The notes beneath the pieces are model-generated. The model searched no databases. It saw nothing but the letters and a program-made list of their open reading frames with translations, and was not told the DNA's origin. The translations under genes and the position numbers were made by a program. A DNA stretch of 64,000 nucleotides from Piedraia hortae CBS 480.64 (taxonomy: Eukaryota), in assembly GCA_010093745.1 (NCBI GenBank), contig MU006015.1, positions 12,184-76,183 on the forward strand, in the 5' to 3' direction. Position 1 is the stretch's first letter, and every line of letters begins with the position of its first letter. Of the stretch, positions 51,561-60,269 are shown piece by piece.

Positions 51561-51947
51561 CTATTGTTTTTCCAGGGCACCTCCTTGCTGTGCCATGGCG
51601 GCATTCTGCTCTTGGAACCTCTCACTTAGCCTCTCCGATCCCTTGATGAACTTGTCCACGCAGCGCATGACGCACCCCTCCTCGTTGCTTAGTAAACTTT
51701 TAGAGCTGAAATCCGAGACACAGTCGTTGAAGCAACGCTGCACCAGATTGGAATACATCTAGACATCGTCAGAACAAGATTCGAGCTAGTCGTGGGTCCT
51801 GGCGACGGCTCACTGTCATGAAGTCCTTCATCTGCTTTTGCTCCAAGCGCGACTGTAGGTCTCGCTGCTCGGCCTGAGTGAGTCTGTACTTGTCAGTTCG
51901 TAAGCCGGTGTGATCACCTTTCCCGCTTACCCAGGTAAGCCAGACAT
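51561..51947 (-). CDS. TIM9: Mitochondrial intermembrane-space small TIM chaperone Tim9
   Basis: [23 protein letters not shown]...[12 protein letters not shown] twin CX3C; two introns. Confidence 0.93.
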
Positions 51948-53642
51948 ATGCGCAACGATCAAATGGGTGAATCGTGAGGCGTTGCGGTTTGTAATAAGTG
52001 TGGCAGGCGGTCCGGAAAATTACCTGCCCGCGTTAGCGGAATCTGCCCGTACATGAAAACACCAGGTTTACAATCAAAAGCTTGCACGTATAATACTACA
52101 CGTAGTTTCACCATAGGCCAACAGCTTGTGCAGCTAATGTCGAAGGACCGAAGGGAGAACGACTCGCTGGACGAAGGACACCCATATCAAAAATGGGCAA
52201 ATAATTAATCAACAAGATCTCGGACCAAAGCAAGGTAGGGCGTTCCAAACCATCACAGTACATATTTATTGGACGCTTTGAACCATGAAATGCCGAGAAT
52301 TGATTCTATCAGAAAGTGTACAGTGTAATACAGGATTCCACAAAGAGCTTGCTGTCTCCAGATCCGGGACATCCACCTTTTTTCGTCTGGATTTAGAGCG
52401 GGCACCAACTTCGCATGGCAGAATTTGATCTTCAACAATGTGACGGCGGTGGAAATCCTGGTCTCGGGCATTGCTGAATACTGGCACCTGTTCGAATCGA
52501 GGCACCAGAGCCCATGATCAGAGAAACTGCGGCATGAACGCCTGAACGTGTCCTGGGATAGGATCATCCACTTGCACACTCCATTCTTAGCTCAAGAACG
52601 CACTCCAGCAGAGATCACCCTGGAAAGTCGGCTTGTTTTGAGGGCATGCGAATGATGTTCGTGCTCGGAGTCATGATAAGTAGCTTAAGGAGCGGTGCGG
52701 CACATAGCTGCCGATAGAGAAACATTGGTTTCGTCCAAGGCTCTGTAACCTCATAGCTGGCTCATACAATAATAGGAGGTCAAGCAGTCTACTACAAAGA
52801 AGAGTCAGCTGTGACCAGTTCCATCCTCTTGTAATCACACGCTACCAGATTTTCATATCGCTCTGTGTTGATGATACTATTTGCTCGATCATATCCGAAC
52901 CTTCCGAGGGTAGATGGTCCACAATTGCTGGTTGTTGTAGGTCAAAGTTCCTACGCGCCTCATACAGCGTCGAGTTTGAATAGAAGCTGACTTTCTGAAC
53001 CCATGTAACTGCGAGGAAGACATGATACGATTGTTGCTATGCACCAATCTGGCGCAGTTGCTAGAAGAAGCCTCTAGAATACAATGGTCGTTACGACCAG
53101 AGGTAGCTAGAAGCGCAATTTGGCGACAATGTAAGCGGGCTGAGCAGACGGTAGTGGTTTTTCCACGGCGGAAAACAAGCTACCATGAATGGCACATCCA
53201 AGCCCGTCATCGGGGATTATCTGAGTAGAAATGCGTGGATGTGGGCGTGCACGACGATCTTGGTGGAGGCGGAGCCGCTACCACCGACATCACCCATTTA
53301 GCCACGCACCTAGTCCACGTGCCCACACAAGCGTCCCGTCGACAGCTGTGATCGTGTTCCTCGCAGCGCCGCGGTCTCCATTTGTGGCGCACACGCAACG
53401 CGGACCGTTGACTGCGGCGTTTCCGTTTCCACAACGCACCCAAGACGCGACCTGTCGAGTCAGACGCGACACGCCGCCACCGCCCCGCAAGACCGTGACT
53501 TCACGCGGCACTAAAGCAGCAAGACAGTTGGCACACGACAGCGCGACGTCTTGGCATCTTGACTACGTGATAGTGTGAAGGTGTGACGGCGTGACAGCGC
53601 GGCGGCCGCTGGATGTGAGGGACGCGACGGCGGACTCGCACC

Positions 53643-56365
53643 ATGGCCAACGTGGGCGGTGGAGGTGCAAAGCCGTCGGCATCGTCACTGCAGAGCGAAA
53701 GCGTGCAGCAGAAGAAGGACCTCGCGAGCTGGTGGCGGAACTTCAAGCGCAGCGACAAGAAGGTGGGCGAGCCGGAGCAGCAAGGTAGGCGATTCGCAGT
53801 TTCGCCCCGGCTGGCCGCTGACGGAAACCAGTCACCCAGAGCATCTTCGGCGTGCCGCTGCAACAGTCGATCAACAATGCCAACGTGGCCATCTCGTTGC
53901 TAGACGACAGAGGCGAGAGCTACATCTACGGCTACGTGCCCATCGTTGTGGCCAAGTGCGGCGTGTTCCTCAAGGAGAAAGGTAAGGGCGGCAGGGCGGA
54001 GCGGTGAAGCGGCGGATAGGGCTGACGCGGGGCAGCAACCGATGTAGAGGGCATTTTCCGCCTAGCCGGCAGCGAGAAGCGCATCAAGGAGCTGCGAACG
54101 GCCTTTGACTCGCCCGACCGCTACGGCAAAGGCCTGGATTGGACCGGCTACACGGTGCACGACGCGGCCAACATTCTTCGCCGCTACTTCAACCAGCTGC
54201 CGGAGCCGATTGTACCGCTCGAGTTCTACGAGCAATTCCGTGAGCCGCTGCGGAACCATCAGGCGCAGGCGGTCGGCTACATTGAGTCGCAGAGCCCCAG
54301 CATCGGCGACTTTGACATTGGCGCCGCAATCCGCTCCTACCAGCGGCTCATCACCGAGATGCCGCCGCTGAACCGCCAGCTGCTGCTATACATACTGGAT
54401 CTGCTGGCCGTTTTCGCCAGCAAGTCGGACCTCAATAAGATGACGACGCAGAACTTGGCGGCCATCTTCCAGCCGGGACTGCTGAGCCACCCGCAGCACG
54501 ACATGGCGCCGCGGGAGTACCGCCTCAGCCAGGACGTGCTGATCTTCCTCATCGAGAACCAAGACAGCTTCCTGATTGGCATGCAGGGCACCGCCGCCGA
54601 CGCCGCCACCGTTCGCGACGTGCAGAGCGGCACGCCCGTCACCCAGCCATCGACGCCCACCACCCCGGGCCGCTCCAAGACGGTTCTCGGCCGATCTTCG
54701 TCAAACGCCAGCGCCGGTGCTGAGAGCGTGCGGAAATGGGGCAACGTGCGCCGCAACGTATCAGTGTCCAGCAAACATAGTAAGTTGTCTGATACGGCCA
54801 TGTCGGCCGCCACGACGCCCACGGGCGTCGGCGTTTACCGCAGCAACACCATGCCGTCGCGGCGCGGCAATGCATCCCACTCGCCGCGCTTCTCGCGCGA
54901 GAGACCCTCTGCCTCTGCCGCTCTGGTCTCGGATGCCGCCATCCCTGCTGCAGCAGTCGCAGCCCCTGCGTCAGACCCCGCTGCCGCTACTGGGACTGAT
55001 CCAGTCTCAGCCCAAGCTGTAGCTTCCCAGCTAGGCACCGAGACGGCAACTCCGCAGCTGGTGTCGAGCCCAGGAGCACCGCTGCAACATGCACCAAGCT
55101 CAAGGGCACCACCACCGCAGCAGCTGGTGGGTGCTTCCGTTGCTCAGACGTTGCCATCTGGCGAATCGGCTGCCGAAACTGCTGAATCTTCAGTTGCGCC
55201 CCAGGGTTATGCCACGCCGAAACGGGACGCCGTGCCCTTGGTGGTACCGCCGGGCTCTGGTAGTGAGCATATTGATAACCCGGCCGCATCTGCCGTATCG
55301 CCCGGCCGAGGTCTTCTCGATATCTTCAAACAATCACCTACCAGCGACGGTGAGGGCAGGAAGCCTAAGAAGCTCCAGAAGAAGCGCGCCATCGGCTCTT
55401 CACTGTCAAGTGCGCATTCATCTTCCCAGTCCCTCCACCATGTCATTTCCCACGAGGCACCCCAGTTATCACCTGCTTCGCCCAGCTTTCCGCCCGTCTC
55501 GCCCAGCCATGCACCCCATTCCCCGAGCATCCTGCCTGTGGCCCCCGTCACCTCCGACCTTCAGCGCGGGCGGCTGCCTCACGACCAACCGCAGCACCAG
55601 CACCAGCACCAGCACCAGCAGCTAAGCGTATCGACTTATGCCACTGCTCAATTCACCCCGATGCGGTCACCATCGGAGCATTTCAATGCAGTCACCTCAC
55701 TTCGCCCTGCCACCTCACCAACGCAGTCATACCGCTCTGCAGACTTGTCGGATGCGGACATGGCAGGCGATGATCTGCCTTTGAATGCGCTGGAGCAGCC
55801 TGGGAAGGCGAAAACGCGGCACATGTGGCGCTTTTCAAAGTCCCCTTCAAGAGCAACGCCGCCGCAGTCCCAGACGCCTGGCATCTCAAATTCGGCAAAA
55901 GAACATACCCACTCCAAAAGCGCGCATGTAGGTATGGGAACATGGCATGGGCCCAGACTGAGTTTCCAGGAGCCATCATCGTATGCCTACGCAAGTACGG
56001 ATACAGGCATTGGTACTCCAAAGCAACAAACATCAATGTCGTCTACGGACCACGTCTTCTCCGACTCTGAACGGGAACGCAGAGGACCAATGTCCTGGTT
56101 ACGTGGTAAGCTCCAAGAACGAAGAGACAAGGAGGCCGAAAAGCGAGCCAAAACGCCCGAAAGACCACGGGATCGGGAGCGTGCCCAAAGCAAACAAGAC
56201 CTACGGCTGCCAGCCGAAGCTATACCAGTTCGCGGCAAGTCATTGGAAAACCAATCTACAAAGGCTGTTGAAAGGCCTCTTGCATCCCCGACTCAGCCAG
56301 TGGCGCCTCCTACATCAGTTCAGGCTCAAGGTGATGGGTCGGCCAATGGCAATACTCTGACTTAA
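53643..56365 (+). CDS. SAC7: Rho GTPase-activating protein, Sac7/Bag7 type
   Basis: SWWRNF, IFGVPL, YIYGYVPIVVAKCGVFLKEK, EGIFRLAGS, HDAANILRRY and NLAAIFQPG; two introns. Confidence 0.9.
55592..55621 (+). repeat. (CAGCAC)n coding repeat encoding a Gln-His tract
   Basis: cagcaccagcaccagcaccagcaccagcag within the RhoGAP tail. Confidence 0.85.
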
Positions 56366-56553
56366 TGAATGGGGGGATGTACGTATACGAGCTAATTGTT
56401 CAACTGGTGTTACGATCCAGAGTCTTGAAGTAATCCAAACCTGTTTTGGCGTAATGTTTAATTATCAATATGACTTGAACAATTGGCTCTGGCGGGCTTG
56501 ACCAAGCTTTCTATACCCTTTGACAGAGTCACCGTGTTGAAGTGGCTGATTAC

Positions 56554-56561
56554 TGACGTCA
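56554..56561. promoter_or_regulatory. Perfect ATF/CREB (CRE) palindrome upstream of the microprotein gene
   Basis: TGACGTCA about 200 nt upstream of the ATG at 56762. Confidence 0.45.
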
Positions 56562-56761
56562 GAGGAAGTCTGCACGTGCTGCCCCTGTGCGTTGGTGTGG
56601 CTGACTGTCACTAGCGCTGTGGCTTAACGTTCACTTCTTGACATTTTCAATCTCCGCCCCAACCTCAAACTGCAAAATACCTACATCTTCCATCCGAGAC
56701 CAGTCTACCTTGTACCTGAGCGACCTTTGACATATCCAACGTATCTACCGAAGCTTTCGCA

Positions 56762-56946
56762 ATGGGTCTTCAATGGGTCAAGTCGTGGGGAGGAAGGCAT
56801 GGCGGTACGTACGCTTCAAGGCCTAGGCACCCCCAACTCAATCAGCAGCTAACGCTTGAGCAGGAGGAGGGATTATCGTGGACCGCCATGGCATGCGTCG
56901 TCTGCCATTTCGCTTTAGCCTCGGCGGCCTCAACTGCTTCAAATAA
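56762..56946 (+). CDS. Putative 41-aa Gly/Arg-rich microprotein, two exons
   Basis: gcaATGG start context; intron 56805-56863 (GTACGT...GCTAAC...CAG); spliced product MGLQWVKSWGGRHGGGGIIVDRHGMRRLPFRFSLGGLNCFK. Confidence 0.65.
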
Positions 56947-57269
56947 TCGGCTCATCGATCGGCCTGGCGGCGAGACCAACACCTTACGATGACGATCAAT
57001 GGCTCAACATCTTCATTGCAGTCGCCATCACTCCCAAGGATGGTCCGATACGACGTTCTAATTTTGTCATGAGAAAGCCGGCCACCGAGTTTCTGGACCT
57101 ATACATGTTCTATTAGCCTTTCAATCGATCCGTTGCACATTCACACCGTAGCCGTTCCTCGTCAATTATCATGTCCTTGAGCAGCACAATGGATCGTTGA
57201 TCCTACACATGTTTGGGTTTTCAGCTATGATTTGATCGTGTCACTAGCCTAGGTGACGATGCACTCGAC

Positions 57270-58229
57270 CTATGTCTTGGCCGATAGACCGCGCAAACTA
57301 AGATCGTAAACGACATCTTCTACCTCTTTGACGCGGTATTTAAGCCCATCCGACCGCTTTCTTAGCACATCGTTCTTCAGGTTAAGAATCTGAAAGCCAG
57401 AGTGCACATCCTTGATGAACTGCGCAATTTGTTGGGGTAGATTGAAATCTCCCAGTGTCACGCTATTGCGAGCCAGTCGAGCCTTTGATTTTGTGTCAAT
57501 CATCGCTCTTACACCCACTGCAAACAAGTAGCTTACCAACTCGTCCAGTAGGCTTAGGAGTGCCAGTAGGTACTCTTCGATAGTCAAGTGGAACGCGTCT
57601 TTATCCTTGAGATTCACGGGCACTTTCATTATGGCCCCGACCTCATCAATGGTAAGGAGTTTTCCTACCTTGTCCTGTCCGAAACCCCCCAGCCAGCCGC
57701 AGAAAAGTATCGATAAGCACTGCAGTGTCAGCCATATTCCCTTGGATGGAGAGGAGAGGGGTGGGGGTAACGCTTACGGCGTCTTGCACCGGTCTCGTCC
57801 AAGCATGACTAAATTTGTAGTACGGATATCTGGAAGCGATCTTGGATAAATCCTGGAGTGTAGCAATCTCATTGCCAATCTCTGATTCAGCTTGCTCGAC
57901 AATCATGCGACCTACGTATATGAGCATACATTCATGGAGAAATTGGCGCACTTGCGTTGGTGGGAAGGCGTTGAATGCACTCGAGACAGGATTGCCTGCG
58001 TCGCACGGTCTGCACACTCCGTTAGCAGACGCGATAAGCCAATGTGGCGCTGCAGCTTTACCATTTTTTTCTAAAGCTTGTGCCACATCGTGTAGTATCT
58101 ATTCATCGTCAACCCGAAAAATAAGGTAGAGAGAAAAATAATCCCCACATCTTTAACTGCTGTGTCCTCATCAATTTTCTTTTGCAAGCTCTCAAAGATT
58201 TCCGAACCGAACAGTACGTTTCCTGCCAT
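57270..58229 (-). CDS. TSN: Translin (C3PO subunit)
   Basis: IFESLQKKIDEDTAVK, YPYYKF...W, FHLTIEEYLLAL and LNLKNDVLRKRSDGLKYRVKEVEDVVYDLSLRGL; several introns. Confidence 0.92.
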
Positions 58230-58461
58230 TGAAATGATAACCGACACTTTGTCTTGACAGAAGTTTGTTGTAGTGGGGCGACCCACTCGGAATCTGCCGG
58301 GCCTGTCAACCCCGCAGCCGTTGAACGCGCCACATACACACGATTTGGTCGCTCATGCAGCGCCTGGAGGTGGATTGAGGGAAGCCATGTAGCAAATTTT
58401 AAGCGTTGCATGCTGCAGATGCGTACGCCCTCGTCTGGCTGTCTATGTTTGCAACATTGAA

Positions 58462-58579
58462 ACGCGTCTCGAGTTCTGTCATGTACGCGTGCAGGGATTG
58501 GAACAAGCGTGGATGATCCCGACAGAATGGGAATGCGGAGAATATTGAGCCGCACAGACCAGCAACGCGCTTGACGCGT
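58462..58579. promoter_or_regulatory. Three MCB elements (ACGCGT) in the translin/homeobox divergent promoter
   Basis: ACGCGT at 58462, 58485 and 58574. Confidence 0.6.
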
Positions 58580-58666
58580 CCACACTGCCGGGCACAAAAC
58601 ACGACCGACCCGCGCTTATAGGTTTTGGTTGTTATCATCTTTACAAACCTTTTTCTCTTATTGAAC

Positions 58667-60269
58667 ATGGACAAATCTGTGGTTTCTGCGACGGCCAACG
58701 AACCAAACCAGTATAATGAACAAGCTTCCACCAGATTTCCATCGTCATCGTCAACCGAATTGTGCATTAAATGTCATGGTAGACCTACCCGTCAAAAGAG
58801 AAAGAGGACCAGGTCAGTCAATGTCTTGACGTTCCTTTCTCTTTCGACTAACATGCTTTGCAGCCCAGAAGACCAAGTCATCCTCGAGGCAGCGTATCAA
58901 CGCGATTCTAGGCCAGACAAAATCGCGCGTTTGGCCCTAAGCCAACATGTGTCGTTGGGCGAGAAAGAAGTTCAGGTCAGTCCAACGAGGTAGACGCTCT
59001 TTCCACTTTTGGGCTAACTTGTAGTCTTAGATTTGGTTTCAGAACCGTCGCCAAAGCTCCAGACGGAAGGCTAGGCCCCTCTCGCCGTGCGAAGTTGCCC
59101 AGTATCCAATGAGGCATTATGCATATAAGCAGAGTTATCCGCAACCCAACTCGTTGTCTGTTGAACCCATCGGCCATGAGATTCGCCAACCCAAGCATCA
59201 TCAATATCAATCATTGTTATCAGCTTCCGGCGGACAAGCGATAGCGAACCTGGACAATAGTCCAGCTGTGCATGGAAAGCCTCCAGGGAGTTCATTGTCG
59301 GCCGGCCCATCTCTCACGTGGGAGGCCCTCGCACTTGCCTCATCAACTTCCAGTACCCCTTCGTGCTTCTCGTCAAGAAGTAAAGGCTCTGTCCCAATAA
59401 GCGACATTGTAAACTCACCCTCCATGCCCATCAGCTCTGACGCTCAACGCCGTCGATTGAAAAGGCCAACGTCATTCGTTCGCCTCGCAATGTCATCTGA
59501 TGGTAACGCTTCCGTGGTTGCTGGACACGGACGATCGTCACAACCGTTCGGAACTCCTCAAGCAGGGATTTTTGCGGCAGAAAGCACAGATAATGGGAGA
59601 CGACGCAGCAATGACCCTCGACCTGACTATAATTGCCTTGACCGCATGAGGTCGAGAGACTCGCGTGCTTGGGAATTTTGGTGCGACAAGAGCAGTCGTG
59701 TAGAGATGGAAGAGCGAGTGCTGCGAGACCCGACTGGATCTGCGGCCAATGCTATCAGTTTAGTGCGATCGAGGTCTGGCAGGAGCATATTAGGCGCGTT
59801 ACCGGCCCAGCGCAACTTAATTCCCCTTGGACAGCTCCCTACCGGAAATCGGCAAAACGATAAGGGGAACAAGGAAAGTAGGTGTACAGCGGCGTCTCCA
59901 AAAGTCCAACGAGGCTCAAACTCTGCAGGTACCTGGATAAAGAGCACTGCAAAGTCGAATACAGAAGACAATATTACAGTCTACATATCCGGCAACGAAT
60001 CGGACAAGGAGAACTGGCTTCCCAGCACTGGTAAGCGCAACAGTGCCTGTTTCACCAAGAATTCAGCCATCCCTACAAAGGATCTCGTCACCGAAACAGC
60101 CCTGGCCTACCCAAGTCGTCCGCTCGGTTCCCCTAAACTCGTTGAGTCAGGTCCAAATGCAGCACTGCCTGTTCCAGCGCGGCAAGGGGATCTAGGGAAC
60201 GAATCATCAGCTGACGATCTGACCTGTGCCCAACGTCTCTTGTCTCTTAGTTATGGGGATTGGATGTGA
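58667..60269 (+). CDS. Homeodomain transcription factor, Yox1-like
   Basis: RQKRKRTSPEDQVILEAAY...LGEKEVQIWFQNRRQ after removing introns 58813-58863 and 58976-59030; WEFWCD, SDKEN and terminal CAQRLLSLSYGDW. Confidence 0.88.

Follow-up and report, generated by a model that had tools for sequence, protein, structure and literature searches.

The DNA between the RhoGAP and translin genes of Piedraia hortae gives rise to a separate, once-spliced + strand transcript, whose single intron had been predicted from the raw sequence of the 64-kb window (the whole stretch of DNA analysed here). We consider it an about even bet that this transcript is young, restricted to its lineage and of the RNA polymerase II (mRNA) type, either a long non-coding RNA or a 'proto-gene', with ORFs that are not (or not yet) selected genes. 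A sequence-only reading of the same stretch had proposed an unannotated-looking gene for a 41-residue cationic microprotein at this position; its transcription unit and splice were borne out by RNA-derived sequence, whereas coding of the 41-residue peptide was not established.

Genomic context

The small transcript is flanked on the left by the RhoGAP gene (53646-56365, + strand; stop codon 56363-56365) and on the right by the translin gene (57270-58400, - strand). Both flanks named in the sequence-only reading were corroborated by Pfam, with a RhoGAP domain match at 54359-56362 (E 2.6e-09) and a translin match on the minus strand at 57273-57479 (E 3.2e-23). Further to the left, the minus strand encodes a Tim10/DDP-family protein (Tim10-like gene, 51579-51885), and the gene order in the window thus reads <- Tim10-like, RhoGAP ->, small transcript ->, <- translin. 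The gap between RhoGAP and translin, which houses the small transcript, measures approximately 815 bp. The RhoGAP poly(A) site was located at 56454, where an RNA contig ends in 23 A's, 89 nt past the stop codon.

Several features of the neighbouring genes were recorded alongside. A single RNA contig of 6586 nt spans translin (-) and the next + strand gene (57210-60000); RNA cover is therefore unbroken across this divergent pair, and a contig over two genes is not proof of one transcript. One of the six RNA-supported introns of translin is a GC-AG intron with the donor GCAAGT (57911-57954, - strand; joint 57910->57955). The + strand gene beyond translin shows GT..AG joints at 58809-58861 and 58973-59029 and a weak homeodomain match of 19.8 bits, which is under the cut-off of 22.9. 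A joint with CT..AC ends, indicating a minus-strand intron, sits at 52791-52846 between the Tim10-like gene and RhoGAP (depth 51.9, with a side of only 29 letters), and could represent either antisense RNA or a 5' intron belonging to the gene on the minus strand.

RNA evidence and splicing

The RNA data derive from one public run, which carries 72% of the sampled words of 54300-58300. The run bears only a guessed RNA label and was treated as RNA on the grounds of contigs that lack introns and one contig with a poly(A) tail. Nineteen of its contigs were placed on 52000-60000, and these contain 12 joints. Eleven of the 12 have GT..AG or CT..AC ends, and the twelfth (57910->57955) is the GC-AG intron of translin; counted the other way, all 11 joints besides that of the small transcript coincide with introns of neighbouring genes. 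The run behaves as RNA, because its joints fit the neighbours' introns and an A23 tail occurs at 56454.

The predicted intron (56805..56863, + strand, 59 nt) consists of a GTACGT donor (56805-56810), a GCTAAC branch site (56848-56853) and a CAG acceptor whose last base is 56863, as read directly from the sequence. The 64 kb contain a single match to this strict pattern, compared to 0.00 expected. One contig of the run contains a joint at 56803->56863 with GT..AG ends, which skips 59 bases and can be shifted to the right by one base with no loss of fit, where it becomes identical to the predicted junction 56804/56864. As this contig skips exactly the 59 predicted bases, the intron is real and the transcript lies on the + strand. 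The sequence-only reading had offered junction reads at 56804/56864 as a check of its gene model, and that junction is indeed used in an RNA-derived contig joint from this one run.

To the left of the joint, the junction contig has only 34 letters (56770-56803). It starts at 56770 and consequently gives no RNA cover of the first candidate start codon, ATG 56762. The RNA-covered part of the transcript amounts to at least 315 nt, with approximately 56770-56804 joined to 56864-57143. The right end of exon 2 as covered by RNA (56864..57143, + strand) was obtained by bin-depth arithmetic (1338.5 x 267 = 1701.8 x 210; (611.6 x 267 - 326.8 x 130)/1701.8 = 71) and is approximate, not a mapped RNA end. 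By the same arithmetic, 56539-56769 and 57144-57209 lack contig cover, which is neutral with regard to transcription there and does not map the ends of the RNA. Mean contig depths were 1701.8 for the junction contig, 636.3 for RhoGAP and 326.8 for translin, and such means cannot rank expression.

The spliced RNA folds with an ordinary energy (z = +0.42 against 100 shuffles), which gives no pointer to a structured RNA. Furthermore, no covariance-model match at E <= 1 was obtained with Rfam 15 for 56300-57300 on both strands.

Upstream region

The transcript lies downstream of the RhoGAP poly(A) site (56454) and ahead of position 57210, where RNA cover of the 3' region of translin begins, and its own promoter would be expected within 56455-56770. 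In this interval, a stretch that lacks ATGs, is low in G (11%) and is rich in pyrimidines and A (56630..56761, + strand) precedes the first ATG and could serve as a promoter or leader. It forms part of an ATG-free gap of 292 nt (56470-56762), which ranks 10th in length among the 1126 such gaps of the + strand. Together with the perfect splice signals and a good ATG context, this long ATG-free, G-poor stretch is an mRNA-like trait of the locus. At the 5' edge of the RNA contig, a direct repeat CAATGGGTC (56760..56779, + strand) is present in two copies 11 nt apart, which hold ATG 56762 and ATG 56773 in differing frames.

The sequence-only reading also described a perfect CRE site upstream. The CRE core TGACGTCA is present at 56554..56561 as the only match in the window, 100 nt past the RhoGAP poly(A) site and approximately 210 nt before the first base of the spliced RNA contig. 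The consensus of both AtfA and Atf1 is reported as ATGACGTCA, which contains the TGACGTCA core (PMC12731236). The small transcript resembles CRE-controlled stress and spore genes of AtfA/Atf1 in having a perfect palindromic CRE core upstream, but differs from the reported consensus in that the core is flanked here by C and G and hence is not the 9-mer ATGACGTCA (PMC12731236). Moreover, the observed count of one TGACGTCA in 64 kb is at the level of chance (0.99 expected; at least one in 60 of 100 shuffles). The core itself stood up; the extended consensus is absent and the frequency is that of chance. Although compatible with AtfA control, the site is not evidence for it.

Coding potential of the spliced transcript

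The 41-codon ORF comprises 14 codons plus one base in exon 1 (56762..56804, + strand; RNA-covered only in 56770-56804) and continues in exon 2 (56864..56946, + strand) to the TAA stop codon at 56944-56946. Joining the two parts by coordinates yields 41 codons and a stop, with 14 residues contributed by exon 1. The ATG at 56762-56764 has G at -3 and G at +4 as read directly, and the ORF list of the window holds only the 76-aa unspliced read-through (56762..56992). The ATG context, intron signals, spliced frame of 41 codons and restriction of the ORF list to the read-through, all previously described from the sequence, were found exactly in place. The same applies to the composition of the peptide, with a pI of 11.8, seven K+R, one D+E, a net charge of +6, 10 Gly, one Cys and two His. 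The Cys is third from the C-terminal end and therefore does not form a CaaX box, as is evident from direct reading. N-myristoylation favours Ser or Thr at residue 6; the 41-aa peptide has Val at this position, not one of the two favoured residues.

We compared these properties with chance expectations. An ATG-initiated ORF of at least 41 codons was present in 878 of 2000 dinucleotide shuffles of the spliced RNA at a length of 315 nt and in 1104 of 2000 at 385 nt; when only the ORF from the first ATG was considered, the corresponding numbers were 507 of 2000 and 501 of 2000. The length of the 41-codon ORF is no more than chance. Likewise, a net charge of at least +6 was found in 28 of 113 chance ATG-ORFs of 38-50 aa within the window, and the cationic charge of the peptide is no more than chance. 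Codon log-odds, for which 18 long window ORFs with 10,018 codons served as the training set, were 0.068 for the 41-codon ORF, 0.037 for a competing 44-codon ORF and -0.132 for a 28-codon ORF. Reference windows of 41 codons gave 0.164 +/- 0.106 in frame and -0.007 +/- 0.097 off frame, which places the codon usage of the 41-codon ORF between coding and off-frame values. The proposal that this frame is a real coding gene is not supported by its length, charge and codon usage, which fail to separate it from chance ORFs.

The competing ORF of 44 codons (56799..56992, + strand) starts with ATG GCG at 56799-56804, two codons ahead of the intron, which it crosses in phase 0, and continues through 56864-56992 to the TGA stop codon at 56990-56992. 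Its ATG has G at -3 and G at +4 and is located within the RNA contig. The encoded product would contain a stretch of 19 residues with a mean Kyte-Doolittle hydropathy of 1.58, a value matched by only 4 of the 113 window ORFs of 38-50 aa. Its codon score of 0.037 is reached by 33% of off-frame windows; of the in-frame windows, only 12% lie at or below this value. The 44-codon ORF is as plausible as the 41-codon ORF.

Searches for related sequences

With the 42-aa translation of exon 2 in the 44-codon frame as the query, a word-index search against 5.8 billion protein clusters retrieved no candidate among proteins of 23-74 aa. The same type of search also gave none for the 76-aa read-through among proteins of 30-40 aa or for its first 60 aa among proteins of 33-105 aa. 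In these large protein collections the 41-aa frame was represented by exon 1 only, and the whole spliced peptide was compared only with the 80 related loci described below. Pfam yielded no family for the 76-aa, 42-aa and 26-aa translations, and no PDB chain matched the 26 aa that exon 2 contributes to the 41-codon frame. In addition, no second copy or paralogue of the small transcript was identified in the 64-kb window, and no fungal micropeptide family of such kind was found among the literature matches listed on smORFs in filamentous fungi. The earlier reader had been unable to assign the peptide to any family, and these searches gave no Pfam, Rfam or PDB match and no characterised small-protein family.

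Two sets of candidates were rejected. HMMER searches of 1.84 billion representatives returned four matches at E <= 0.001, all to long repeat proteins of 750-1550 aa, which we regard as spurious; the best, a 766-aa protein, matched in 13 stretches approximately 55 residues apart with approximately 25 bits each, partly on residues encoded by the intron. This protein resembles translated tandem-repeat DNA, which inflates the HMMER E-values of short queries. For the 44-codon frame, the best ESM Atlas score was 0.82 with a low recognition value of 1323, and this match was likewise discarded.

Lineage restriction and an inversion junction

The C-terminal exon of translin recovered 199 relatives in metagenome contigs, of which the best 80 (72-87% identity) were used for comparison; 49 of these 80 loci extend at least 900 nt downstream of translin. 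None of the 80 loci matched 56455-57269 in blastn (E <= 0.01) or 56455-57209 in tblastx (E <= 0.05), and in tblastn with the three spliced peptides the best hit reached only 21.9 bits (E 0.16). A homologue with a conserved frame, which the sequence-only reading had suggested seeking by tBLASTn, was thus not found among 80 related translin loci with at most 87% identity in the translin exon.

RhoGAP was found in three of the 80 loci (L006, L044 and L047, the nearest of the metagenome loci), and all three share the order translin ->, <- Tim10/DDP-family gene, RhoGAP ->. There, the 3' end of translin faces the Tim10-like gene, whereas in the window it faces the 3' end of RhoGAP. The two gene orders thus differ by an inversion of the Tim10/RhoGAP block with regard to translin, and the small transcript lies at the junction. 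On the basis of this comparison, the DNA of the small transcript appears to be a lineage-specific inversion junction, for which either order may be ancestral.

Nature of the transcript

The yeast literature provides the concept of short fungal transcripts confined to one lineage, 'proto-genes' and smORF genes that arose de novo, and fungi commonly have short orphan transcripts and candidate smORFs. The small transcript is of this known kind: it is real, spliced and an orphan, and of an ordinary sort. Like fungal proto-genes, it is short, spliced, orphan and intergenic, with ORFs of approximately 40 codons that are chance-like in length and composition; unlike them, it has consensus-perfect splice signals and a location at an inversion junction. 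Under the evenly weighted interpretation stated at the outset, the transcript would be restricted to its lineage and would lack a selected protein product. A long non-coding RNA would be an RNA polymerase II transcript of more than 200 nt that has no translated, selected ORF; at least 315 nt are covered by RNA according to the bin-depth arithmetic, and the coding tests are neutral. The consensus-perfect splice signals, the ATG-free, G-poor stretch before ATG 56762 with its purine at -3 and G at +4, the hydrophobic stretch of the 44-codon ORF and the ordinary fold speak against a transcript whose ORFs are not under selection.

Two coding alternatives have to be weighed against such a non-selected transcript, both of which we judge unlikely. 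In the first, an mRNA starting upstream of 56762 would be translated from its first AUG into the 41-residue basic, Gly/Arg/aromatic-rich peptide, with a function in nucleic-acid or membrane binding. The exact frame across an intron that is used, the good context of the ATG after 292 nt of ATG-free, G-poor sequence and the highest codon score of the three ORFs are consistent with this scenario, but the junction contig begins at 56770, downstream of ATG 56762, and the length, charge and codon use are those expected by chance. In addition, exon 1 matched no protein of 30-40 or 33-105 aa, exon 2 has no match in Pfam or PDB, and the whole peptide has none in the 80 related loci.

In the second, which is doubtful to a similar degree, the leader would be very short, AUG 56762 and AUG 56773 would be skipped or absent, and AUG 56799 would direct the synthesis of a 44-residue membrane micropeptide, acidic at its N-terminus and polar in its tail, with one hydrophobic segment that may span the membrane. 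The phase-0 intron, the ATG with G at -3 and +4 inside the RNA contig and the rarity of such hydropathy among ORFs of this size in the window point in this direction. Single-pass membrane micropeptides are known from yeast (Pmp1/Pmp2) and animals (sarcolipin), and the 44-codon product would fall into the same size class, with one hydrophobic segment of approximately 19-22 residues. It differs from them in that protein searches revealed no sequence similarity, the hydropathy of 1.58 is borderline and membrane insertion is putative. Further evidence against this product is the codon score of 0.037 described above, the lack of a protein of 23-74 aa, a Pfam family or a well-recognised Atlas match, and the absence of tblastn matches in the 80 loci; if the RNA starts earlier, two out-of-frame AUGs would also precede its start codon.

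A more far-reaching and rather improbable hypothesis is a de novo microprotein gene that arose in DNA created or exposed by the Tim10/RhoGAP inversion, and that is efficiently spliced and translated into the 41- or 44-residue product, maybe under CRE/AtfA stress control. Finally, an artefact, namely a joint from another organism or a paralogous copy, or a by-product of a neighbour such as RhoGAP read-through, would fit a joint seen in only one run and one contig but is very improbable, given that no differing letters were reported for the placed contigs, the window holds no second copy, the RhoGAP contig has its poly(A) tail at 56454, 316 nt ahead of the covered part, and the canonical joint ends coincide with the sole strict intron pattern in 64 kb.

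Implications

At the RhoGAP-translin locus, a real intron was predicted from nothing but the raw sequence, together with a transcription unit that the searched protein collections lack. The locus also illustrates that a neat spliced ORF of 41 codons cannot count as evidence for a protein, given that roughly one in two shuffled transcripts of the same length has such an ORF. If neither ORF is translated or selected, the small transcript is one more lineage-specific fungal transcript. If either ORF is translated and selected, the locus would provide a compact model for how an orphan gene originates at an inversion junction, and if the de novo gene hypothesis is true, it would represent a dated and experimentally tractable case in which a gene of a filamentous fungus was born at a rearrangement junction.
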